Assembly: GCA_964524325.1 (NCBI GenBank)
Contig: CAZGCT010000001.1
Span: forward strand, 172,164 to 236,163
DNA from: an uncultured Hyphomicrobiales bacterium
Lineage (GTDB): Bacteria > Bacteroidota > Ignavibacteria > Kapaibacteriales > UBA2268
Direction of reading: 5' to 3'
DNA: 64,000 nt
Part shown: positions 38,194 to 50,211 of the stretch, piece after piece
How positions within the stretch are numbered: the stretch's first letter is position 1
How the letters are laid out: each line of letters starts with the position of its first letter
Position numbers and translations under genes: made by a program
The notes under the pieces: model-generated
Told to the model about the DNA's origin: nothing
The model's database searches: none
Seen by the model: the letters and a program-made list of their open reading frames with translations, nothing else

Positions 38194-39405
38194 TTACGAA
38201 AGTTTGTATTGATTAATCTTTCGGTACAAGGTTCGCTCGCTTATTCCAAGGGCTTTTGCAGTTCTACGGCGATTTCCTTTAAATTTTCTTAGGGTATATG
38301 AAATAATTTCTTTCTCGATATTGGTTAAATTCAAATTATCTGGTAAAATATTTGGGAAACCATCATTATCGACAATATGATATGTTCCCGGCCTTAGTTC
38401 TGTAATATTCGAATTTACCGAATCCATCTTACTATTCAATTCGTTTAAAGCTTCTTTTACCAGGTCCACATCCTTTTTAATTTCAAGTAAAGTTCTAAAA
38501 ATGATTTCTAAGCCTAGTTGGGTTTCTTTTCCGGAAGGAACATAAAGTAAAGATGTTTCCTTAGGTTGTTCAATTCTTACATGGGGTGGTAGTGCTGGTG
38601 GAAGGTACCTTTTTAAAACCTCAAGGGTTATATACCCAGTTTTTTCAAGTTTTAATATAGTTTCTATGAGATTTTTTAATTCCCTAATATTTCCAGGCCA
38701 TTGCAATCCACGAAGGATATTCAAAGCTTCCAACGATACCCCTTGAAAAGAGATCCCAAGTTGCGAACAAGTTTTTTGGGCAAAAAAATCGACCAGAATT
38801 GGAATATCCTCTGGACGTTCACGTAATGGAGGAAGAATAATATGCAAATTTTTTAGTCTGTAAAACAAGTCTTGTCTGAAAGTCCCTTTGTATATTTCCT
38901 CTTCAAGCTTTTTATTTGTAGCAGCAATCACTCGTACTTCAACCTTCCTGACTTCAGTTGAACCTAGTCGATTGAATTCCCCTGATTCAAGTACACGAAG
39001 TAATTTAACCTGCGTTCCGACGGGCATTTCTCCAATTTCGTCCAAGAAAATTGTTCCGCGATTTGCTACTTCGAAATATCCTTTTCTTTGTTCGTAAGCT
39101 CCGGTAAAGGCACCCTTTTCGTGTCCAAAAAGTTCGGACTCTAGCAATGTTTCAGGTATTGCGCCACAATTAACACTTATGAAAGGAAATTTTCTTCTTT
39201 TGCTAAGTTGATGAATGGCGTTGGCGACTACTTCTTTTCCAGTTCCAGTTTCACCCGTGATTAAAACATTAAGGTCCGTGGGGGCAACTTTAAGAATGGT
39301 ACGGAAGATGTCAAGAATTTTTTCAGATACACCAACAAGTCCATATTTGTTTTCTAGTAATTCAAGAGTGGCTTTATTAATTATTATTTCTTCATTCATT
39401 GGCAT
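38194..39405 (-). CDS. sigma-54-dependent transcriptional activator lacking an N-terminal sensor domain (PspF-like)
   Basis: The AAA+ domain starts at about residue 20 (GETGTGKE). The GAFTGA motif is present. A C-terminal Fis-type HTH reads RTAKALGISERTLYRKI. Confidence 0.85.
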   Translation of the reverse strand: MPMNEEIIINKATLELLENKYGLVGVSEKILDIFRTILKVAPTDLNVLITGETGTGKEVVANAIHQLSKRRKFPFISVNCGAIPETLLESELFGHEKGAFTGAYEQRKGYFEVANRGTIFLDEIGEMPVGTQVKLLRVLESGEFNRLGSTEVRKVEVRVIAATNKKLEEEIYKGTFRQDLFYRLKNLHIILPPLRERPEDIPILVDFFAQKTCSQLGISFQGVSLEALNILRGLQWPGNIRELKNLIETILKLEKTGYITLEVLKRYLPPALPPHVRIEQPKETSLLYVPSGKETQLGLEIIFRTLLEIKKDVDLVKEALNELNSKMDSVNSNITELRPGTYHIVDNDGFPNILPDNLNLTNIEKEIISYTLRKFKGNRRRTAKALGISERTLYRKINQYKLS

Positions 39406-40054
39406 TCTTTCTTAACTTTGTCCATTCATCCCAACCACCGGGATAAATAAAAACATTTTTGTAACCGAGGTGAATTAAATCGTACGAAACTTTGTGGCTT
39501 GCGTCGCAAGAACCTCCTTCGCAATAGACAATAATTACTTTTTGTGGGTCTATTGGCAAAGTTGCTATCTTTTGGAAATACAAGTTTAGGTCCTGCTCGT
39601 AGGCAAAGATATTTATAGCTTTGCCAATATGGGCTTTATTGTACTCATCTGGTGAACGTGCATCAATTAGTATGAGATTTGGAGACTCAAGGTATTTAAT
39701 TAATTGATTGTAGGTAACAATGGGAATTTCATCTGAACGTTTTTGAGGATTGATTTTATCAACTTGCTTTTGTTCTATTTGGGTTGCTTTCTTTGCTTTC
39801 GTTGTATCCTTTAAAGTAAAAGTAGCTGTGTCTAATTTTTTTATATCTTCTTTGCTTGCAGTTTCTTTTGGGGGTACATTCGAAATTGTATCAGAAAGAA
39901 GTTTTTCTAATATTGTGTCCGAAACTATTGCTGGTTTCTTAAATAAAATAATTCCAGACGGGTTTAAATAGTTGTAAATTACAGCAACGAAAGAAGTTAA
40001 GCCTAAAATAAAAAGAGCTTCTCTGGAAATTTGTTTCCAATCTATTTTGCGCAT
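39392..40054 (-). CDS. membrane-anchored rhodanese-domain protein
   Basis: An N-terminal TM helix is followed by a rhodanese fold (LIDARSPDEY). The active-site loop is VYCEGGSCD. The gene overlaps the activator gene by 14 nt. Confidence 0.7.
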   Translation of the reverse strand: MRKIDWKQISREALFILGLTSFVAVIYNYLNPSGIILFKKPAIVSDTILEKLLSDTISNVPPKETASKEDIKKLDTATFTLKDTTKAKKATQIEQKQVDKINPQKRSDEIPIVTYNQLIKYLESPNLILIDARSPDEYNKAHIGKAINIFAYEQDLNLYFQKIATLPIDPQKVIIVYCEGGSCDASHKVSYDLIHLGYKNVFIYPGGWDEWTKLRKNANE

Positions 40055-40534: not shown

Positions 40535-41389
40535 CTAGTAAGATTCTGATTCGTTGGGAAAGTTTTGGTTTCTAACATCTTCAGCATACTTTTTACAAGC
40601 TTCTAAAATTGTTTCGAACAAACTTGCATATCTACGTACAAACCGAGGATTAAAATCTATAGTTAAGCCAACAAGGTCGGTATACACAAGGATTTGCCCA
40701 TCGCAGTGCGGCCCTGCGCCAATACCTATTGTGGGTATTTTAATTGCTTGAGAAATTTTTTTGGACAGTTCTGCGGGTATTTTTTCAAGGACTACGGCAA
40801 AAACACCAGCTTGTTCTAAGTTTACAGCGTCGCGGAAAATTGCTTCCGCTTCTTGTGGATCTTTGCCTCTTGCCCTATAAGAACCAAATTTGTGGATACT
40901 TTGTGGCGTAAGACCAACGTGACCCATCACCGGAATACCACTTTCTGTCATTCTTCTAATTGCTTGTAAAGTAATTTCTGTAGCACCTTCCAATTTAACT
41001 CCTCCACAACCTGTCTCTTTCATAATTCTTCCTGCATTTGTAAATGCTTCGTCCGCAGATACTTGGTAGCTCATAAACGGCATGTCTGCAATAATTAAGG
41101 GTCTTTTTGCTCCTCTTACAACTGCTTTTGTATGGTAGATAATTTCATCCAATGTAACTGGTATAGTTGTTTCTAACCCTTGGACAACATTACCAAGCGA
41201 ATCTCCAACTAAAATTACATCTACACCACTTTCATCTAATATTCTTCCTATTAAAGCATCATAAGCGGTTAGACAAACTATCTTCTGCCCAGAATTTTTC
41301 ATTTCTTGAAGTCTAAAAGTTGTGACTTTGCGTGGGTCCACGCTTGTGCTTCCAATATAATCCATTTTTCCCTTTTCGATTAAAAGCAA
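40535..41389 (-). CDS. panB: 3-methyl-2-oxobutanoate hydroxymethyltransferase
   Basis: The motifs KIVCLTAYDALIGR, LVGDSLGNVVQG and GIGAGP are present. Confidence 0.85.
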   Translation of the reverse strand: MLLIEKGKMDYIGSTSVDPRKVTTFRLQEMKNSGQKIVCLTAYDALIGRILDESGVDVILVGDSLGNVVQGLETTIPVTLDEIIYHTKAVVRGAKRPLIIADMPFMSYQVSADEAFTNAGRIMKETGCGGVKLEGATEITLQAIRRMTESGIPVMGHVGLTPQSIHKFGSYRARGKDPQEAEAIFRDAVNLEQAGVFAVVLEKIPAELSKKISQAIKIPTIGIGAGPHCDGQILVYTDLVGLTIDFNPRFVRRYASLFETILEACKKYAEDVRNQNFPNESESY

Positions 41390-41678
41390 AATTAAAAAAT
41401 ATGTAACTGGTTAAATAAAATTTTTTTCCGTAATGTATTATTGGATTAAGAAATTTGCTTTGATTTATGTCATTACGGCAGAACCGAGCTACTTGATTTT
41501 ATTCATTTTTAATTCGTAGAAATAATGAACACCGAAACTAGATTTTTTTTAATTTTACTGTTTGGTAATATTTAAATATTAGATTGATACGATTATAAAA
41601 AAGGTACATTAATTTTATATTTATTATAAAACAATAGGGTGCAAATTTTAATAAAAAATATTGAAGAGGTAAATTGGT

Positions 41679-41691
41679 GCTGCTTAGCAGC
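41679..41691. promoter_or_regulatory. 13-bp perfect palindrome GCTGCTTAGCAGC in the divergent panB / octaheme-operon intergenic region
   Basis: An exact palindrome about 250 nt upstream of the octaheme cytochrome start. It is a candidate dimeric regulator binding site. Confidence 0.3.
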
Positions 41692-41942
41692 TGATAATTA
41701 TTGTAGCTTAGTTTTTCAAGTTTTAGAATTTTACTGTTTGTATTGCTATGAGAACCCTTCAAAGTAGTAACAATTTAATTTTTTGCACTAATTTTCTAAG
41801 CAAAACTACAAAAGTTTATCAGCCATGATACTTTGTTCTTGGTGTTATTATTTTATGAAAATAGTGGATTCACTTCAGAAATTGCCTCTTAATTTCCTTT
41901 TAAAATTCGATAATTTCTTATTTATGTTAAATAAAAGAAAGC

Positions 41943-43544
41943 TTGAAAGATATGAGATGGATTGTAATTTCTCTTGCCATTTTAAGCGGCGTCGCTGTTG
42001 TTGTCCTCAACCTTATTAGTCCTAAAGAAATATTACCTACAAAGTTAATGCAATTGAGGGAAAAGTATTCCTCTAAAAAGTTCGAAGCTGGGTACAAACG
42101 TGTCGACCACTCAAAATTTGCTATTCTCCAACAAAATTTCGAAACACCACAAGAGGTTACCAAAGCCTGCATTTCGTGCCACAATAATACTGCAAAAGAT
42201 ATTATGAATGGTAACCATTGGAATTGGGAAAGAGTTGATTACATTAAAGGCAAAGGAATTGTGTATCTTGGGAAAAGAAATGCAATCAATAATTATTGCT
42301 TGAGTGTTGTAAATAGCGAAAAGCTTTGTGCAAAATGCCACATTGGATTCGGAATTGACCATACTGGTCGTGGTTTTACCGATTCAACGAATATTGATTG
42401 CCTAATATGCCATGATAATACTGGATCATATGCAAAAGCTTCAGGGGAAGCTGGTGCACCGTCTCCAAATGTCAATTTCAATTTTGTTGCTCAAAATGTA
42501 GGCAAACCACAGAATGTAAATTGTGGTTCATGTCATTTCTTTGGTGGGGGTGGGAACAACGTAAAGCACGGCGACTTAGAAGTGTCATTGTTGGAGGCTA
42601 CAAATGAAGTTGATGTACATATGGGTATCGATGGATTTAATTTGCAATGTATTGATTGCCATACTACTCATAGGCATAATATATCGGGGAAATTGTATTC
42701 ATTGTCTTCAATGAATACAAATAGAGTTGAATGTGAACAATGCCATACCGCTACACCTCACACAAAAGGGATTTTAAACGAGCATACATTGAAAGTAGCT
42801 TGCCAGACTTGTCACATACCTAAATATGCAACAATGAAACCAACTAAATTATCTTGGGATTGGAGCGAAGCTGGAAAACTTGTAGATGGTAAACCGATAA
42901 AACTTAAAGATTCCCTTGGTAATGAAATTTATACATCCCAGAAAGGTAGGTTTACTTGGGGCAACAATGTACGACCCGATTACATTTGGTTCAACGGAAC
43001 TAGTAGCCATTACCTTGCTGGAGACAAGATTCAAGATACTTCGAAACCATTGGTGCTCAATCAATTATTTGGTACATTCGACGACCCAAGTTCAAAAATT
43101 TATCCAGTGAAAATTCATTATGGCAAGCAGCCATTCGACCCGATTAACAAAATACTAATTCAGCCAAAACTTTATGGTGAGAAGTCCGGCGAAGGTGCCT
43201 TTTGGGTTGATTTCGATTGGAAAACTTCTTCAAAAATTGGTATGCAAACTCTCGATTTACCTTTCAGTGGTGAAATTTCTTTCATTCCAACTATTATGTA
43301 TTGGCCCTTAAATCATTTGGTTGTTAAAAAAGAAAAATCTGTGCAGTGTATAGAATGCCATACCAAAAACAGCTCTCGCCTTGCTGGACTTCAAGGTCTT
43401 TACTTGCCCGGGAGGGATAATAGCGATTTGGTTGACTACGGTGGTTTAATATTAATAATTTTAGTGATTCTTTTGGTTGTGATCCACTCTTCATTTAGGA
43501 TTTATTTTTATTTTAAAAATAAAAAAGAGGTTCAAAATGGGTAG
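41943..43544 (+). CDS. membrane-anchored octaheme c-type cytochrome (OTR/HAO-like superfamily)
   Basis: There are eight CxxCH motifs: CISCH, CAKCH, CLICH, CGSCH, CIDCH, CEQCH, CQTCH and CIECH. A hydrophobic segment sits at each end. No CxxCK motif is present. Confidence 0.8.
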   Translation: MKDMRWIVISLAILSGVAVVVLNLISPKEILPTKLMQLREKYSSKKFEAGYKRVDHSKFAILQQNFETPQEVTKACISCHNNTAKDIMNGNHWNWERVDYIKGKGIVYLGKRNAINNYCLSVVNSEKLCAKCHIGFGIDHTGRGFTDSTNIDCLICHDNTGSYAKASGEAGAPSPNVNFNFVAQNVGKPQNVNCGSCHFFGGGGNNVKHGDLEVSLLEATNEVDVHMGIDGFNLQCIDCHTTHRHNISGKLYSLSSMNTNRVECEQCHTATPHTKGILNEHTLKVACQTCHIPKYATMKPTKLSWDWSEAGKLVDGKPIKLKDSLGNEIYTSQKGRFTWGNNVRPDYIWFNGTSSHYLAGDKIQDTSKPLVLNQLFGTFDDPSSKIYPVKIHYGKQPFDPINKILIQPKLYGEKSGEGAFWVDFDWKTSSKIGMQTLDLPFSGEISFIPTIMYWPLNHLVVKKEKSVQCIECHTKNSSRLAGLQGLYLPGRDNSDLVDYGGLILIILVILLVVIHSSFRIYFYFKNKKEVQNG

Positions 43545-44211
43545 GAAAGTTTATATCTATTCTGCATACGAGAGATTTTGGCATTGGACTCAAGCAATTT
43601 TGATTTTCTTTTTAGCCTTCACTGGCTTCGAGGTACATGGTGTTTATATTTTCTTTGGGTACGAAAATGCTGTAATTTACCATAGAATTGCTGCCTATCT
43701 TTACATCATATTGGTTATTTTCACTATTTTTTGGCATTTTGCTACAGGACTATGGAAACAGTATATTCCTACGCGAAAATTCATTAAGGAACAAATTGAG
43801 TTTTATATTACCGGTATTTTTCGTAATGCTCCTCATCCTATTAAAAAGACTGTTTTAAGCAAACTTAATCCATTACAAAAGCTTACTTACTTTGCATTAA
43901 AAGTTTTGGTAATTCCAATAGTGGGTACATCTGGTTTATTCTATCTTTTTTATCGGTACCAAACCGACTTAGGGGTACAAGCAATTAATATTGCTTCATT
44001 GAAATACATTGCAATAATTCACACCGCCGGTGCAATTTTGCTGGTTGCTTTTATTATTGTGCATATTTATTTAACTACAACTGGAACTACTATTTTTTCA
44101 AATCTAAATGCTATGTTGACTGGGTACGAAGAAATAGAAACAAAGGAAGAATCGGATAAAAATTTCGTCCAGAAATCAGAGTTGCCGGTTCAAAATTTAG
44201 AAGAAAATTAA
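43537..44211 (+). CDS. cytochrome b561/HydC/FdnI-family membrane b-type cytochrome subunit
   Basis: RFWHWTQAILIFFLAFTGFEVHG and four TM helices carrying His ligands are present. The gene overlaps the cytochrome c gene by 8 nt. Confidence 0.7.
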   Translation: MGRKVYIYSAYERFWHWTQAILIFFLAFTGFEVHGVYIFFGYENAVIYHRIAAYLYIILVIFTIFWHFATGLWKQYIPTRKFIKEQIEFYITGIFRNAPHPIKKTVLSKLNPLQKLTYFALKVLVIPIVGTSGLFYLFYRYQTDLGVQAINIASLKYIAIIHTAGAILLVAFIIVHIYLTTTGTTIFSNLNAMLTGYEEIETKEESDKNFVQKSELPVQNLEEN

Positions 44212-44232
44212 TTTAAGTCATAAATTTGGAGA

Positions 44233-44754
44233 GTGAATATGGAAACACAAAAGTATATGAATCCTTACTTGGCGGGCTTGTTGTTAGGTTTGTTGTTACT
44301 TTTTACTTTTTTTATCACTGGTCGTGGTTTGGGTGCAAGTGGTGCATTCAAAAGCCTTACAGTTGCTACAGTCCAAAGCATTGCCCCTGGACATTCAAAT
44401 AATTCTAAATTCTACAAGGAATATTCCGAAGAGCATTCTGGAAATCCCTTGATGAACTGGCTTGTCTTTGAAATTTCGGGTGTCATTATTGGGGCTTTTC
44501 TTTCTGGACTTGCATCCAATAGATTGAAACTTCAATTGGAAAAAGGACCGAGGTTGTCTTCGAACACAAGAATAATCGCAGCATTTCTTGGTGGGGTACT
44601 TTGGGGAGTTGGTTCACAACTTGGTCGAGGTTGCACAAGCGGTGCAGCTTTGAGCGGCCTTGCAATTATGTCCACTGGGGGTATCCTTACCATGATATCA
44701 ATTTTCGCTGGGGCCTATTTGTTTGCATTTTTCTTTAGAAAGTTTTGGATTTAA
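44233..44754 (+). CDS. YeeE/YedE-family sulfur-compound transporter, half-size subunit A
   Basis: The protein is 173 aa with 4 TM helices. The conserved loop GRGCTSGAALSGLA is present. Confidence 0.7.
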   Translation: MNMETQKYMNPYLAGLLLGLLLLFTFFITGRGLGASGAFKSLTVATVQSIAPGHSNNSKFYKEYSEEHSGNPLMNWLVFEISGVIIGAFLSGLASNRLKLQLEKGPRLSSNTRIIAAFLGGVLWGVGSQLGRGCTSGAALSGLAIMSTGGILTMISIFAGAYLFAFFFRKFWI

Positions 44755-44766
44755 TTGGGAGGATTT

Positions 44767-45996
44767 ATGGGACCACTTGTGCCAGATGTAATTAGTCAAG
44801 GGTTAAATTTTGTTATTGCATTTTTTATTGGAATTTTCTTTGGTGCGATATTGGAACAGGCAGGTTTTTCTTCTTCGCGAAAACTTGTTGGTTTGTTCTA
44901 CGGTTATGATTTTACGGTTTTAAGAGTATTCTTTACTGCTGGTGCCGTTGCAATGGCTGGAATTTTTCTTTTCCAAACATTTGGAATCATCGATATTACT
45001 GCCTTTTATATAAATCCAACTTACTTCTGGTCTGCAATAGTTGGTGGTTTAATTATGGGACTGGGATTTGTTGTTGGTGGATATTGCCCAGGAACAAGTG
45101 TTTGTGCTGCTTCCATAGGTAAGCTCGACGCAATGGTTTTCGTTTTTGGCATTATTGTTGGCGTTTTTATTTTTGCCGAAGGGTACAGTATCTTTGAACC
45201 ATTATATAAAAGTTCGTTTCTGGGTTATCCAAGAATTTTCCAAACCTTAAATATTTCTCAGCAGTTTTTTGCTTTTCTTTTGGTTATAATTGCTTTATCT
45301 GCTTTTTATTTTACAAATATTATTGAAAACAAAGTAAATAGTAAAAAGCTAAGTGCCATCAAAACTACACCTTATTTTGCAATAGTGTTAGTGATTGGAG
45401 TTGTTATTGCTTTTTCTTCCTTTACTTTTTACGATAAAAAGGAGATGATATTAAGTTTAACGGAAAATCCAGAATATGTTGTCTCTGCAACTGGTATTTC
45501 TTGCTCCGATACTAATCCAAATCCAAATTCAATTTGCCCTGACGAATTTGCTCTTATCTTAATTAGAATCCTTGAGTTTAAAAACATTAAAATTTATGAT
45601 TTCAGACCCACAGAAGATAGACAAAAACTACCATTTCCAAAATCTATACCCTCAACAATTGATGATTTGTTTTCTAAAGAATTCAATAGACTACTTCGGG
45701 TGAGGGGCACCGAAAATATTTTTATTGCTAATGATGAATTTACAGAAAGAAAGATGGTCTTTATTGCTAAAAGTTTGGGCTACAAAAAAGTTAAGTTTTT
45801 GAAAGGTGGGGTGAACTACTTTGTCGATGAAATTTTGAATTACAAAGAAAACCCCGATCCTAGAACCCAACAAGAAATTAACCGGAACAAATTTAGGCTT
45901 TATGCTAAACAAGTATTACCGGAAATCTTTGCAAAGTCTAAGACAAATGAAGTTTCCCAAACAAAGAAGAAAAAACCTACTATGGGAGGGTGTTAG
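44767..45996 (+). CDS. YeeE/YedE-family transporter half-size subunit B fused to a rhodanese-like domain lacking the active-site Cys
   Basis: The N-terminal TM region carries GGYCPGTSVCAAS. The C-terminus has a rhodanese-like fold (KIYDFRPTEDRQ...FLKGGVNYF) with no Cys at the catalytic loop position. The start is taken at the ATG preceded by GGGAGG. The ORF track begins at an upstream TTG at 44755. Confidence 0.65.
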   Translation: MGPLVPDVISQGLNFVIAFFIGIFFGAILEQAGFSSSRKLVGLFYGYDFTVLRVFFTAGAVAMAGIFLFQTFGIIDITAFYINPTYFWSAIVGGLIMGLGFVVGGYCPGTSVCAASIGKLDAMVFVFGIIVGVFIFAEGYSIFEPLYKSSFLGYPRIFQTLNISQQFFAFLLVIIALSAFYFTNIIENKVNSKKLSAIKTTPYFAIVLVIGVVIAFSSFTFYDKKEMILSLTENPEYVVSATGISCSDTNPNPNSICPDEFALILIRILEFKNIKIYDFRPTEDRQKLPFPKSIPSTIDDLFSKEFNRLLRVRGTENIFIANDEFTERKMVFIAKSLGYKKVKFLKGGVNYFVDEILNYKENPDPRTQQEINRNKFRLYAKQVLPEIFAKSKTNEVSQTKKKKPTMGGC

Positions 45997-46080
45997 TATC
46001 TCTTTTTTGAATTTTTAATTAGGATTAGATTTTGTTTAGTTGCATGGGTTATTTGTTTAGATTAACTTTTTAAAACTAAT

Positions 46081-47376
46081 TTACTTTATCATGTTTCCAT
46101 AATGATCGAACATGTATTTCACAACGGCTTCGGCTTCGTTTGGTTTTAGACCTTGGTTTGGCATAGGCGGGTAATTTGGGTCTACTTTAACAGGGTTTAG
46201 AATGTACCTTACCATATCTTCTTGGCGATCCTCATATTTTTTTAATACTTCTTTGTGAGGAGGGCCAACCAATTTGGTATCGAATTGATGACAAGCAACA
46301 CATTTTGCTTTGTAAATCTCTTCCCCATTAACTTCTTTGACTGTACTGCGACCAGCACTTGCTAAAAGCTTCTCATGATATGCAATATGATCTTTTGAAA
46401 TTTTGAACTCTTGTATTTTGTTCGAAATTGCGAGGGAGGTTGCATCCGAACCAAAGAACAATAGGAAAGAGAATATTGCAGAGAAAAAGGCATTTTTGGC
46501 AAAAGTAATGCTTTTATTTTTTAATGAAAAATAACTAAATAGTAAGCAAAGTAAAAAAACAAGCAAAGAAGCTACAAGTAAAATGTAATTTTGTAGGGTT
46601 ACAAGACTTTTGGGTAAATTGACATAAATGACAAGAGAAATAATTGGAAGAATATTGCCCCAGATGATAACATTTGAAAGAGCTTTTTTAACCACACCGT
46701 TTTCTTCAGGAAAAAATTCGCCTATTTCGGAAACTTTATCCACTGTAAATGTTTTGAAAATGTAGGCTAAGGAGGAAAGGACAAAAGCAATTCCAATGAA
46801 TTGGATAATTCTGAAAATAATATTCAAATCCAAAAAATCTGCAATGTTGAAGCCAGATAAAACGAATGAATTTTGAATTGCAATTAATGAAATACCATTA
46901 GTTAAGTATATAGTAAAAAAGATTGCAATTATTGAAAGTGTTTGAAGTAATAAAATAGTCGGATTAATGTTTATTAAACTATGATTCTTTTCAAAAAAAA
47001 ATAGTATGGTCTTTAGGAAAACTACAAATAAGATGAAAAGTAGAGTGGAAGAAAAAAGTACTACAAAAAAGTCATTGGGTGCCTTTTGCATAAATTGAAG
47101 TAAGGAATAATATATCGAAAGCAAAGGAACAAACCCAAGCCCGATTAACGCTACATAGCCTCTTGCGATATACTCGATAAAGTTCCTTGCAATAGTTAAA
47201 TAGTATTCGTTTTTTGTTTTATTGGTTTTAACATAGAAATATAGGGAATAAATTACACCACCAAACAAAAAAGCAAAATAAAGGTTGAAGGTTGAAAAAC
47301 CTAAATAGAAAAATATCTCCAAAAGTTTTGAAACCTGTACTGAATGTGGAATTGCAAAAACGTTCAACGCTTCCAT
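46081..47376 (-). CDS. polytopic membrane protein with C-terminal class-I cytochrome c domain
   Basis: About 12 TM helices are followed by KAKCVACHQFD ... PPMP, a CxxCH motif plus a Met-ligand region. It is the last gene of the cox/ctaB run. Confidence 0.55.
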   Translation of the reverse strand: MEALNVFAIPHSVQVSKLLEIFFYLGFSTFNLYFAFLFGGVIYSLYFYVKTNKTKNEYYLTIARNFIEYIARGYVALIGLGFVPLLSIYYSLLQFMQKAPNDFFVVLFSSTLLFILFVVFLKTILFFFEKNHSLININPTILLLQTLSIIAIFFTIYLTNGISLIAIQNSFVLSGFNIADFLDLNIIFRIIQFIGIAFVLSSLAYIFKTFTVDKVSEIGEFFPEENGVVKKALSNVIIWGNILPIISLVIYVNLPKSLVTLQNYILLVASLLVFLLCLLFSYFSLKNKSITFAKNAFFSAIFSFLLFFGSDATSLAISNKIQEFKISKDHIAYHEKLLASAGRSTVKEVNGEEIYKAKCVACHQFDTKLVGPPHKEVLKKYEDRQEDMVRYILNPVKVDPNYPPMPNQGLKPNEAEAVVKYMFDHYGNMIK

Positions 47377-47386
47377 TTATTCTCTC

Positions 47387-48256
47387 CTAAAATTTGAGTA
47401 TTTTCTGAACTGAAATGACAAGTGAGAAAATTAAAACAAAGATGTTCAAATTTATAAATGCTATTTTATAAAAGTTTTGTGGTTGGATAACTTTAACCAT
47501 ACGGTAAATTCTTCCTAAAAATAAAACACCTAGCAAAAAAACAACGATAAACGAATAAAGATTAAAACTTTCGATAAAAGCTAATATTATCAATGCAATT
47601 ATCACAAGTGCAAAAATCCAAAAAAAAGATATTCTTGCAATTTGTAAGGAAGAAAAAATATCTGTGAGCACTGGAAAGCCAGCATTTCGATACTCTTTCT
47701 CATAAACAATTAAAAGTAACCAAAAATGTGGAATTTGCCATACAAAAAAGAAAAGGGAAATTGAAAAGATTTGAGGATGCTCAATTGAACCGCCCGCAAA
47801 TGTCCAACCTATCAAAGGAGGAATTGCTCCAATCACAGCTCCAGGGATTGCTGCAAAAGGGGTTATTCTCTTCAAAGGTGTATAAATTACATTATAAAAA
47901 ATTAAGGCAAGAAGCCCAAAAAAGAAAGGGTGTGACTTTTCACTTGAGAGAAAAAGTACAGCTAAGCCTATTGCAATTAGTGCTCCAGATATAATAGTTC
48001 CAGATGCTGGAGAAATTACTCCTTGGGGGATTGGACGAGACATTGTTCTTGGCATTCGACTGTCCAATTGCCATTCTTGCACTTGATTGAGTGCACCGGA
48101 GCCTCCAGCCAGCAAAAAAACACCAAGCCAAAGGAAAAACAAATCGAAATTAATAGAATTGTTTGCAAGTATATAACCAAGAATTGCTGATATCGATACA
48201 AATACGACAATTCGAAATTTAATCAATATTAGAAAATTCTTTAAGGTAAATTTCAT
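47387..48256 (-). CDS. ctaB: protoheme IX farnesyltransferase (heme O synthase)
   Basis: A UbiA-family fold carries the motif NQVQEWQLDSRMPRTMSRPIP. Confidence 0.8.
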   Translation of the reverse strand: MKFTLKNFLILIKFRIVVFVSISAILGYILANNSINFDLFFLWLGVFLLAGGSGALNQVQEWQLDSRMPRTMSRPIPQGVISPASGTIISGALIAIGLAVLFLSSEKSHPFFFGLLALIFYNVIYTPLKRITPFAAIPGAVIGAIPPLIGWTFAGGSIEHPQIFSISLFFFVWQIPHFWLLLIVYEKEYRNAGFPVLTDIFSSLQIARISFFWIFALVIIALIILAFIESFNLYSFIVVFLLGVLFLGRIYRMVKVIQPQNFYKIAFINLNIFVLIFSLVISVQKILKF

Positions 48257-49224
48257 TGTTTATTTTTTGCAAAGTTGATGAACAACAAATCAACAATGTA
48301 CTCTAATTCATCTTCTTTTAAGTTGTTTAGTTGTCTTGGCATTTTAATTTTTTCATAACCACTAACAATATGTAAGTCGGGGTTGATTATTGATTCCCGA
48401 ATGTAGTTCTTGTCTATAGCAACAGAAGTGTCTTTCCCATTGAAGATGACTTTTGCAAAACCCCGAGATAATTCAGAAAACGATGGACCTATGCTTTTTC
48501 TGTTGTCAATACTATGACATTGGACACAACCTTTTGCAAATAAGATTGCCTGGCTACCAGACAAGTAATCTTTATAGCCACCAGTATGAGATGCTACATA
48601 TTTTCGAAGATAATTATCGTCGACTTTACCCTCTAGCCATTGCGAAAATTCATGCTCCGGTACGACATAGACTTTTGTGTACATTAATGAATGATTCAAA
48701 CCGCAATATTCAGCACATGCTATGTCGAATGAACCAATTTCTTTCGGATGTACAACCATATAGTTTTCTCTACCAGGAATAGCGTCCTCTTTAATTCTAA
48801 AAGCAGGTATGTAAAAAGAATGGTTTACGTCTTGCGATACAATGTTGAACTTAACTGGCCTTCCAACCGGTATAAACAAAGTGTCTGTTACTTTGCCATT
48901 ATCGTAAAAAAAATTCCAAGCCCACATTTTTGCTTCGACCTTAACGTTCAGTGCGTTGGGTGGAACAATTCGCGATTCCTTGAAAACTCCATAACTGTAG
49001 AAAAACATTGTTAAGACAAGTATTACAGGAACAACAATCCAAATAATTTCAACAACCTTATTCCCCTCAATTTGCGAGGCGACTGGATTTCTCTTCCGAT
49101 TGTATTTGATTACAAAATATATCATAGCAAAAGTAACAATCAAAAGTAACGCAACTGCTATTCCTATTATATACAACATCACATAATCGACTGATTTAGC
49201 ATATTCTGTTGCCCATTGAAACAT
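48253..49224 (-). CDS. coxB: cytochrome c oxidase subunit II with fused cytochrome c domain (caa3-type)
   Basis: Two N-terminal TM helices are followed by the CuA motif CAEYCGLNHSLM. A C-terminal CVQCH heme site is present. Confidence 0.85.
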   Translation of the reverse strand: MFQWATEYAKSVDYVMLYIIGIAVALLLIVTFAMIYFVIKYNRKRNPVASQIEGNKVVEIIWIVVPVILVLTMFFYSYGVFKESRIVPPNALNVKVEAKMWAWNFFYDNGKVTDTLFIPVGRPVKFNIVSQDVNHSFYIPAFRIKEDAIPGRENYMVVHPKEIGSFDIACAEYCGLNHSLMYTKVYVVPEHEFSQWLEGKVDDNYLRKYVASHTGGYKDYLSGSQAILFAKGCVQCHSIDNRKSIGPSFSELSRGFAKVIFNGKDTSVAIDKNYIRESIINPDLHIVSGYEKIKMPRQLNNLKEDELEYIVDLLFINFAKNKQ

Positions 49225-49233
49225 TTCAACCTC

Positions 49234-49527
49234 CTACCTAAAGAAAATATCAGTTGCCGTAAGAATAAAAATTGATGCAAGCGTTACCAGTGCAACCAAA
49301 AGAAAGAACTTGAAAATTGCATCGTCGAATTTAATATGCATAAAATAGTTTATAACAAGAGTTGACTTGACAGCTGCAATAAATAAAGCTATAAACAAAG
49401 CAATCCGACCAAAATCTACACCAGCAATGGTTACTGTAAGGACAGTAAGTGAAACAAGGCTTAACCAAACAAGTACATAAGTTCCATAGGGTATTAAATG
49501 TGAGTTGTGCTCTTTTTCCATTGTCAC
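49234..49527 (-). CDS. coxD: cytochrome c oxidase small subunit IV (CoxD-like)
   Basis: A 97-aa protein with 3 TM helices, positioned between coxC and coxB. Confidence 0.5.
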   Translation of the reverse strand: MTMEKEHNSHLIPYGTYVLVWLSLVSLTVLTVTIAGVDFGRIALFIALFIAAVKSTLVINYFMHIKFDDAIFKFFLLVALVTLASIFILTATDIFFR

Positions 49528-49530
49528 CTC

Positions 49531-50211
49531 TTAGTGAATAAGATAAAACAAAGGGAACAAAAAAATCCAAATTAGATCGACAAGGTGCCAATATAATCCA
49601 GAGTTTTCGAGTTTGATATAATCCTCTTTGTTGATTTTATTTCTAGATAGGAAAACAAGCATAAATAGTAATATTATTGCACCAATAATTACGTGTAAAG
49701 CGTGGAGCCCAGTCATAGAATAATACATTCCGTAGAAAATAATCTCACCATTTGGCTTTGACAGTAACTCTGGGTTGTTCGGTGAAATTCCATGCTGAAA
49801 CTTTGCGCCCCACTCAAAATACTTAATGACAAGGAAGGCTAAAGCAAAAGCAATAGTCGAAATTAAGAAAAAAATTGAAAGAGTCTTTTTAGCTCTTTGG
49901 ATTGCTGCTATCGAAAGAGCCATAGTTAAACTACTTGTTAAAAGAATAATAGTATTTACCGTACCTAGAACAACATTCAGTTCTTGCCCTGCTATTATAA
50001 AGTCCTTTGTATATTGCAATCGATAAGACATATAAAGCAGAAATAATCCCCCAAATAAAAGCAATTCAGTAAATAAAAACAACCACATACCGATTTTGGC
50101 ACCAATAGCATCTTTGTGTTGATGTGGGTCAGAGATATGGTGGACACTCTTCTTAATTTGATTTTCGGAAAGTGCATTTGTTGTTTCAATTCTTTCCATC
50201 ATTTTTCTCAT
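49531..50211 (-). CDS. coxC: cytochrome c oxidase subunit III
   Basis: A roughly 200-aa, 5-TM protein adjacent to coxA with the subunit III-like hydrophobic pattern. Confidence 0.7.
   Translation of the reverse strand: MRKMMERIETTNALSENQIKKSVHHISDPHQHKDAIGAKIGMWLFLFTELLLFGGLFLLYMSYRLQYTKDFIIAGQELNVVLGTVNTIILLTSSLTMALSIAAIQRAKKTLSIFFLISTIAFALAFLVIKYFEWGAKFQHGISPNNPELLSKPNGEIIFYGMYYSMTGLHALHVIIGAIILLFMLVFLSRNKINKEDYIKLENSGLYWHLVDLIWIFLFPLFYLIH

Follow-up and report, generated by a model that had tools for sequence, protein, structure and literature searches.

We describe a locus of four genes, otr, a cytochrome b gene (cytb), yeeA and yeeB, in a 64,000-nucleotide stretch of DNA (hereafter the window; contig CAZGCT010000001.1 of GenBank assembly GCA_964524325.1, positions 172,164 to 236,163 of the forward strand) from an uncultured bacterium labelled Hyphomicrobiales and placed by GTDB in the Kapaibacteriales (Ignavibacteria, lineage UBA2268). 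The reading that we favor, with somewhat more than even confidence, is that the locus is an operon encoding a periplasmic reductase of the octaheme OTR family, bound to the membrane and linked to quinol, together with a dedicated sulfur-handling cassette that comprises a carrier arm and an import channel. More tentatively, and with the balance of our judgment still somewhat against it, we suggest that the cassette is portable, being built from split YeeE genes and an unrecognized periplasmic sulfur-carrier family (an inactivated rhodanese with a GGC arm) and serving both Otr-cytochrome b and Psr/Phs systems. The features concerned, in window coordinates, are as follows.

41952..43544, + strand: otr, octaheme c-type cytochrome of the OTR family (TIGR04315, alignment to PDB 1SP3, eight CxxCH motifs)
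42273..42299, + strand: active-site segment GKRNAINNYC of Otr (residue alignment to 1SP3)
43437..43508, + strand: C-terminal transmembrane helix of Otr, YGGLILIILVILLVVIHSSFRIYF (invariant H515 and R519; absent from 1SP3)
43537..44211, + strand: four-helix dihaem cytochrome b of the PF01292 type, FdnI/HyaC/PhsC-like (PF01292 at 82.8 bits, His ligands)
44239..44754, + strand: yeeA, half-size YeeE/YedE protein, C-terminal half, PmpA-like (PF04143 profile positions 174-310)
44767..45429, + strand: membrane part of yeeB, N-terminal half of YeeE with an H7-like helix and an extra helix (PF04143 profile positions 12-182)
45430..45954, + strand: noncatalytic rhodanese-fold domain of YeeB, predicted periplasmic (AlphaFold, Foldseek, loop alignment)
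45955..45993, + strand: disordered Lys-rich tail of YeeB, SQTKKKKPTMGGC (terminal GGC at 45985-45993, stop codon at 45994-45996)

As a preliminary description of this DNA had reported, four co-directional genes lie within 4 kb, and the tightly packed plus-strand open reading frames (41943-45996, in the order otr, cytb, yeeA, yeeB) are all present where it placed them. The first frame (41943-43544) opens at a TTG at 41943, which corresponds to the 533-residue cytochrome of that description; homologue lengths and alignments point instead to ATG 41952 and 530 residues as the likely start and length of Otr, and likewise to ATG 44239 (171 residues) for YeeA and ATG 44767 (409 residues) for YeeB. 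The 8-nucleotide overlap of otr and cytb (ATGGGTAG at 43537-43544) was recovered, as was the GGGAGG Shine-Dalgarno sequence ahead of the fourth gene (44757-44762), from which the yeeB ATG begins 4 nucleotides later. Successive intergenic distances are -8, 27, and 12 nucleotides. We found no convincing terminators between the four genes; scans for promoter and terminator consensus sequences gave counts at or near shuffle expectation, and an Rfam scan of 41300-46200 returned a sub-threshold small RNA as its sole match (E=0.21). Judged from the sequence, the four genes probably form one operon. Upstream of otr lies a 560-nucleotide AT-rich spacer (41390-41951), in which neither a riboswitch nor a regulator open reading frame was found.

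Profile and alignment evidence places the cytochrome as a true and ordinary member of the OTR family and not a new enzyme. Otr matches TIGR04315 at 558 bits (cut-off 375) over positions 1-440 of 440, a result that takes away part of the novelty claimed earlier for the module, and its residues 61-479 align with OTR of Shewanella oneidensis (SO_4144, PDB 1SP3; E=1.1e-120). It contains exactly eight CxxCH motifs (at residues 76, 129, 153, 194, 236, 264, 287, and 469), zero CxxCK motifs, and hydrophobic segments at both ends, the N-terminal one a signal or anchor; in all of this the preliminary description was right. The heme Cys and His residues are all conserved in 14 homologues. MtrA-like porin-cytochromes, HAO, MccA/SirA, NrfA/NrfH/NrfB, and DmsE were considered for Otr and rejected, as they gave weak partial matches far below cut-off.

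The distal ligand of the active-site haem, which the preliminary description had proposed to look for, can be placed by alignment: K111 of Otr matches Lys56 of 1SP3, and C119 matches the adjacent Cys64, within a segment that reads GKKN in the Shewanella protein and GKRN in Otr. Both columns are invariant among Otr homologues. Lys56 of the Shewanella enzyme reportedly ligates the active-site haem, as Mowat et al. are said to have described in 2004; Otr carries the same Lys-ligated haem motif by alignment, and the ligation itself is predicted. The two proteins differ beyond the catalytic core. Shewanella OTR is a soluble periplasmic enzyme and its 443-residue 1SP3 chain aligns only as far as Otr residue 479, before the C-terminal transmembrane helix of Otr, in which H515 (43485-43487) and R519 (43497-43499) are invariant in 82 of 82 homologues. 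In addition, Otr has a translationally coupled cytochrome b and a YeeE/rhodanese cassette, unlike its Shewanella counterpart.

The second gene encodes, as described previously, a 224-residue cytochrome b of the PF01292 type (82.8 bits, gathering cut-off 30.1). Its best NCBIfam match, PhsC (NF011582), scores 94.4 bits and does not reach the cut-off of 204, and the protein is accordingly classed by profile as PhsC-like, not PhsC. The four His ligands expected on helices 1, 2, and 4 of this type are accounted for by comparison with FdnI, whose haem ligands H18, H155, and H169 correspond to H16, H162, and H176, while H49 lies one turn from FdnI H57. All seven of its His residues are invariant (79/79 homologues). 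Three of them, H34, H67, and H100, are beyond the four canonical haem ligands, yet equally invariant; taken with the His/Arg pair of the Otr helix, they might belong to a third haem site or to a quinone site of an unusual kind.

The four-helix cytochrome b is shared with FdnGHI, [NiFe]-hydrogenase-1, and PhsABC, and the redox partner in each arrangement invites comparison: FdnH and HyaA each carry a single C-terminal transmembrane helix, as Otr does. The differences from these systems are that the periplasmic partner here is a multihaem c-type cytochrome rather than a molybdenum or NiFe enzyme with an iron-sulfur subunit, and that the pair has three extra invariant His in the cytochrome b and the invariant His/Arg pair in the Otr helix, which set it apart from FdnGHI and PhsABC. 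From the invariant H515 and R519, the seven invariant His, and the alignment with the FdnI ligands, we infer that Otr and cytochrome b form a stable complex of the FdnHI/HyaAC kind, with a cytoplasmic-side quinone/haem site spanning both subunits, in which cytochrome b is presumably the quinol-oxidizing membrane anchor.

YeeA and YeeB were rightly recognized in the preliminary description as half-size YeeE/YedE proteins, each covering one half of PF04143 (YeeA positions 174-310, YeeB positions 12-182; 82.6 and 56.9 bits for the two halves, gathering cut-off 27). YeeA aligns with residues 235-326 of StYeeE, and the Cys of its GRGCTSG motif (44632-44634) matches the essential C293 at the periplasmic substrate site of StYeeE; YeeB carries a GGxCxG-containing motif, GGYCPGTSVC, that is invariant and whose Cys lie at 45085 and 45103. 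A phmmer search of the Protein Data Bank with YeeB did not retrieve YeeE, and its assignment as a YeeE half rests on the Pfam profile coordinates. Neither the models of the full-length, nine-helix TsuA/YeeE transporter (NF041049 and NF052577; 25 and 47.5 bits, cut-offs 645 and 400) nor the YedE/FdhT selenium-transport models (38 and 26 bits, cut-offs 350 and 200) are reached by the two halves. The C-half/N-half split is that of PmpA/PmpB, split YeeE halves that have been proposed to heterodimerize (PMC11582611).

The two genes share a reading frame in the window (44752-44767), with a single TAA and 12 nucleotides between them; in relatives their spacing is variable and out of frame. A full-length yeeE broken by frameshift or pseudogenization was considered and rejected, since the C-half precedes the N-half and this order is conserved with variable spacing in 70 loci, so that the in-frame TAA in the window is a coincidence.

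Topology matters here because it decides on which side of the membrane the C-terminal domain of YeeB lies. Crystallized YeeE has an outside N terminus; its H1-H6 together with H7 finish on the inner side, and its second half has the opposite orientation (PMC7449682). YeeB has five transmembrane helices like the YeeE N-half plus H7, followed by a sixth (45364-45426); six hydrophobic segments are seen in the sequence and six helices in the AlphaFold model. The outside N terminus of YeeE and the six helices of YeeB put the C terminus of YeeB outside, and thus its C-terminal domain is predicted to be periplasmic. Charge bias is the second basis for this topology (the loop between helices 5 and 6 is ENKVNSKKLSAIK, and the N terminus is without positive charge), the third being the stand-alone homologues presented below. 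In YeeA, helices 2 and 3 are joined by a loop that is strongly basic, as would suit an inside N terminus, and positive-inside analysis gives both termini inside.

The fusion of a degenerate rhodanese to the fourth protein, with no Cys in the catalytic loop, was correctly noted in the preliminary description, which overlooked an invariant terminal Cys and the probable periplasmic location; these two properties change the mechanistic reading of the domain. Against PF00581 the YeeB domain scores 13.7 bits (E=0.085), below the gathering threshold of 22.2, and a PF00581 match is present in most YeeB homologues. AlphaFold models residues ~225-395 at a predicted local distance difference test (pLDDT) score of 83-91, and the top Foldseek matches are rhodanese folds, mostly of single-domain rhodaneses (template modeling score 0.57-0.74, probability 1.0). 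Where a catalytic rhodanese has its CxxxxxR loop, YeeB has the acidic sequence FIANDEFTERK (45721-45753), with Ala replacing the Cys. The loop Cys is missing in 71/73 fused and 12/13 stand-alone homologues, where Ala, Ser, or Gly replaces it.

The conserved Cys of this family is found instead at the end of the protein. Residues 397-409 form a tail of low model confidence (pLDDT <50), and the terminal GGC is present in 30/30 database homologues and in 69/71 complete homologues from genomes; in a few of the latter, further residues follow to give GGCG, GGCS, or GGCGV. The rest of the rhodanese-like domain has a mean pairwise identity of only 35%, so that selection acts specifically on the tail. 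The swinging arm of SoxY has GGC as its functional motif (PMC11237559), and by analogy we propose that the YeeB tail is a sulfur-carrier swinging arm. Like the GGCGG arm of SoxYZ, it is a flexible, basic, C-terminal peptide with GGC, extracytoplasmic by prediction and linked to c-type cytochrome sulfur enzymes; unlike SoxY, it sits on a rhodanese scaffold that is membrane-tethered and fused to a transporter, has no sequence or fold relationship to SoxY, and binds sulfur covalently by proposal only.

A second analogue is Sud of Wolinella succinogenes, the periplasmic polysulfide-sulfur transferase of polysulfide reductase, which has a rhodanese fold and carries sulfur on a Cys to that quinol-linked enzyme. 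Sud and the YeeB domain are both periplasmic rhodanese-fold carriers (the latter by prediction) beside a quinol-linked sulfur reductase, and cassettes of the window type also accompany Psr/Phs-like operons; Sud works with the canonical loop Cys, whereas members of the YeeB family have their conserved Cys at the very end of a disordered tail. YeeB also differs from the TsuAB system, whose partner is the cytoplasmic, TusA-like YeeD and not a predicted periplasmic rhodanese fold with a terminal Cys.

We surveyed the conservation of the unit by a pattern scan over one genome per species, which found at least 576 stretches encoding relatives; the best 80, which are the closest relatives (47-63% identity), were examined, and 70 of these are informative in having at least 2 kb beyond the cytochrome b gene. 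The order otr-cytb-yeeA-yeeB, in the same orientation, occurs in 70/70 informative loci. The arrangement had been presented as not known to be described; within this survey it is widespread and constant, and in that respect the module is partly an ordinary one. Its carriers, both metagenome-assembled genomes and isolates, are labelled in their records as Ignavibacteriota, Melioribacteraceae, Kapabacteria, Prolixibacteraceae, and other Bacteroidota, and further as Acidobacteriota, Planctomycetota (Pirellulaceae), Armatimonadota (Chthonomonadia), and LCP-89; named best matches are mostly labelled Ignavibacteriota or Ignavibacteriales, which suggests an origin of the window in that group. Cultured carriers include Mariniphaga anaerophila DSM 26910, Gaoshiqia sediminis, Sunxiuqinia rutila, and a Lutibacter sp. 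Pairwise distances of the four proteins correlate (r=0.54-0.80), as expected of a unit inherited together.

Genes flanking the module vary between loci, and the sole recurrent neighbor is a small co-directional upstream regulator, of MarR type in 16 loci and MerR type in 15; the window has neither. The MerR-type regulator upstream of otr is Cys-rich, and its C-terminal Cys cluster might sense redox state or sulfur. One locus has a second otr-cytochrome b pair (L073:4483-6548, - strand) that is divergent, stands beside the full module, and lacks a yeeAB of its own, which indicates that the otr-cytochrome b core can occur without the cassette.

The reverse association, of the cassette with other enzymes, emerged from searches with the rhodanese-like domain alone. 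A word-indexed search gave no match, and an exhaustive HMMER search retrieved only 72 cluster representatives. Many of these are stand-alone proteins of ~200 residues, consisting of an N-terminal signal anchor, a Cys-less domain, a Lys-rich linker, and a terminal GGC, and one stand-alone paralogue of 375 residues has a lipobox. The signal anchors and the lipobox support a periplasmic location of the YeeB domain, and the fused protein has the appearance of a YeeB of five helices to which an exported, anchored carrier has been added. Stand-alone carrier genes directly follow split YeeE genes in 5/5 contexts examined. Three of these contexts, independent of one another, extend far enough to show what precedes the cassette: it comes immediately after genes for a molybdoenzyme that resembles PhsA/PsrA (its PhsA score, 476-483 bits, falls short of the equivalog cut-off), for an iron-sulfur subunit, and for an NrfD-type anchor. 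A Draconibacterium locus (L046) has the same cassette, with a molybdopterin oxidoreductase gene ~1.5 kb upstream of it, both beside the otr module. The cassette is thus common to two unrelated kinds of quinol-linked periplasmic reductase, Otr and the Psr/Phs type, and since the latter are sulfur enzymes by family, this is the strongest argument that Otr acts on sulfur. Independent of this, otr adjoins a divergent soxY/soxZ in lucinid symbionts (PMC11237559), which places Otr beside a SoxY carrier.

Exported rhodanese-like GGC proteins also occur as two or three tandem paralogues (L087:8001-10990, L090:8001-9278, and L085:2179-3474). One of these is a two-domain predicted lipoprotein, another retains a loop Cys (FYCNNG), and in L087 a gene for a PF05635 (23S rRNA intervening-sequence) protein is inserted between two GGC paralogues.

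From these data we propose the following working model. Cytochrome b would oxidize menaquinol and pass electrons outward to the eight haems of Otr, whose C-terminal helix would pack on cytochrome b as the anchors of FdnH and HyaA do, and Otr would reduce periplasmic tetrathionate or a related sulfane-sulfur compound (polysulfide or polythionate). YeeA (N terminus in) and YeeB (N terminus out) would pair in antiparallel fashion, and their heterodimer would correspond to a single full-length YeeE channel. Owing to the sixth helix of YeeB, the rhodanese-like domain would lie in the periplasm, where the terminal Cys would serve as a tethered carrier arm, analogous to the GGCGG arm of SoxY or to Sud of polysulfide reductase, and would bind sulfur covalently as a persulfide or thiosulfonate. 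The arm may present this sulfur to Otr, may deliver the product to the YeeAB channel at its periplasmic opening so that it can be imported, or may do both. The channel step is consistent with the proposed PmpA/PmpB heterodimer and with the proposal that SoxT, a YeeE-like protein, imports sulfur from SoxYZ (PMC11582611).

Several observations weigh against this model. The loci surveyed are confined to the closest relatives. The resemblance to SoxY is a three-residue motif and not homology, and no SoxY family match was seen in Pfam or NCBIfam. The operon contains no gene for a thiol-disulfide oxidoreductase, though a periplasmic free thiol needs protection or re-reduction. The membrane half of the YeeB AlphaFold model has a pLDDT of only ~40-50 and was not used for topology. 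Finally, Shewanella OTR in vitro also reduces nitrite and hydroxylamine (cited in PMC4911364 and PMC7509429). Four other readings have to be weighed beside the sulfur-reductase model, and the context data make each of them less likely.

The first of these, unlikely but with a noticeable chance of being right, runs the system in the oxidative direction, with Otr oxidizing thiosulfate or arm-bound sulfur in the manner of SoxXA or TsdA, electrons flowing via cytochrome b to quinone, and the GGC arm acting as substrate carrier. The SoxY-like GGC arm fits such a scheme, as do the otr genes that adjoin divergent soxY/soxZ in sulfur-oxidizing lucinid symbionts (PMC11237559) and the cytochrome c oxidase cluster immediately downstream in the window. 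No other Sox components were seen in the module flanks, and the Psr/Phs-type enzymes that come with this cassette are reductases. The tetrathionate/thiosulfate couple, moreover, reportedly lies at ~+0.2 V (a value that Kurth et al. are said to have given in 2015), which would make thiosulfate oxidation to menaquinone, the quinone assumed here, unfavorable.

A small chance remains with a reading that denies the carrier: the terminal GGC would be a gate or plug of the YeeAB pore, a sensor of redox state or sulfane sulfur, or a metal or haem ligand, and the rhodanese-like domain a docking scaffold only. The inactive, acidic catalytic loop agrees with this, and SoxT-type YeeE proteins have been implicated in signal transduction besides import (PMC11582611). 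The two or three tandem stand-alone paralogues, including a channel-free predicted lipoprotein, nevertheless fit diffusible or tethered carriers better than a plug, and the Lys-rich flexible tails with terminal GGC mirror the SoxY carrier arm.

Improbable in our view is that Otr-cytochrome b is a quinol-linked nitrite or hydroxylamine reductase for ammonification or detoxification, with the YeeE and rhodanese genes as unrelated neighbors. This reading draws on the in vitro activities named above, and several genome papers invoke Otr for nitrite reduction. It is at odds with the position of yeeA-yeeB directly after otr-cytb in every informative locus, across phyla and with differing flanks, and with the presence of the same cassette beside Psr/Phs-like sulfur reductases; no nitrogen-metabolism gene is conserved near the module. 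Very improbable is selenium or tellurium handling, in which Otr would reduce selenite or a related oxyanion and a YedE-like channel and Cys arm would import or sequester the product: the YeeE halves do match YedE/FdhT models weakly, and a related multihaem enzyme supports selenite-dependent viologen oxidation (PMC13510729), but those scores are far below cut-offs, no selD, selA/B, or selenoprotein genes are conserved nearby, and the cassette has Otr- and Psr/Phs-type enzymes as its partners.

Part of the system is already in the literature. In Thermosulfurimonas dismutans, Otr and a cytochrome b561 (TDIS_1882/1883) were read by Mardanov et al. as a membrane quinone-linked tetrathionate reductase (PMC4911364), and Kadnikov et al. 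(2020) reported in the Ignavibacteriae metagenome-assembled genome Ch128a a cluster of "Otr and cytochrome b561 protein" that takes electrons from the quinone pool (PMC7509429). The pairing of an octaheme cytochrome with a PF01292-type cytochrome b, put forward in the preliminary description as undescribed, had therefore been reported. Both systems share the two-gene core with the window; the split YeeE, the rhodanese-like domain, and the GGC tail go unmentioned there. For the association with YeeE halves the claim fared better, as we found no description in the open-access literature of otr with YeeE, or of a GGC-tailed rhodanese (an absence that is no proof), and the four-gene unit is annotated only gene by gene. 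The invariant association of Otr with a split YeeE and a periplasmic, Cys-tailed, inactive rhodanese appears to be undescribed, as do the sharing of the cassette with Psr/Phs-like operons and the C-terminal membrane helix with invariant His and Arg in this Otr clade. The broader idea of a quinol-linked, periplasmic sulfur-oxyanion module with sulfur import is consistent with our results and strengthened by genomic context; its novelty was overstated.

Two neighboring regions of the window deserve mention. On the minus strand, about 2 kb from the otr operon on its upstream side, a gene at 39392-40054 encodes a protein of 220 residues that combines a single membrane helix at the N terminus with a rhodanese domain in which a Cys of catalytic type is retained (VIIVYCEGGSCDASHK). 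This gene overlaps by 14 nucleotides the start of a gene for a sigma-54-type activator (38194-39405), and a regulatory link to sulfur sensing is conceivable. Directly downstream of yeeB, and convergent with it, is the cytochrome c oxidase cluster (46081-50211, - strand), which was read from translations only. Its products are a polytopic membrane protein of 431 residues that has a cytochrome c domain (CVACH) at its C terminus, a putative haem O synthase, and proteins resembling oxidase subunits II, III, and IV, of which the subunit II-like one is fused to a cytochrome c domain (CVQCH). With this cluster the host is probably a facultative aerobe.

The physiological role of the OTR family has been debated since its structure was obtained in 2004, as tetrathionate, nitrite, and hydroxylamine are all reduced in vitro, and genome papers place OTR in either the sulfur or the nitrogen cycle. 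The invariant link of Otr to a sulfur channel and a Cys-arm carrier, in a cassette common to Psr/Phs, is strong contextual evidence for a sulfur role, which would concern Ignavibacteriota, Bacteroidota, and Acidobacteriota that are abundant in sediments, aquifers, and wastewater. The module also suggests an independent origin, on a rhodanese scaffold, of a carrier strategy like that of SoxY. If the GGC carrier does belong to a portable cassette, OTR-family enzymes would act in vivo on carrier-bound sulfur and not on free tetrathionate, and we offer the hypothesis that their substrate is carried on a tethered arm.

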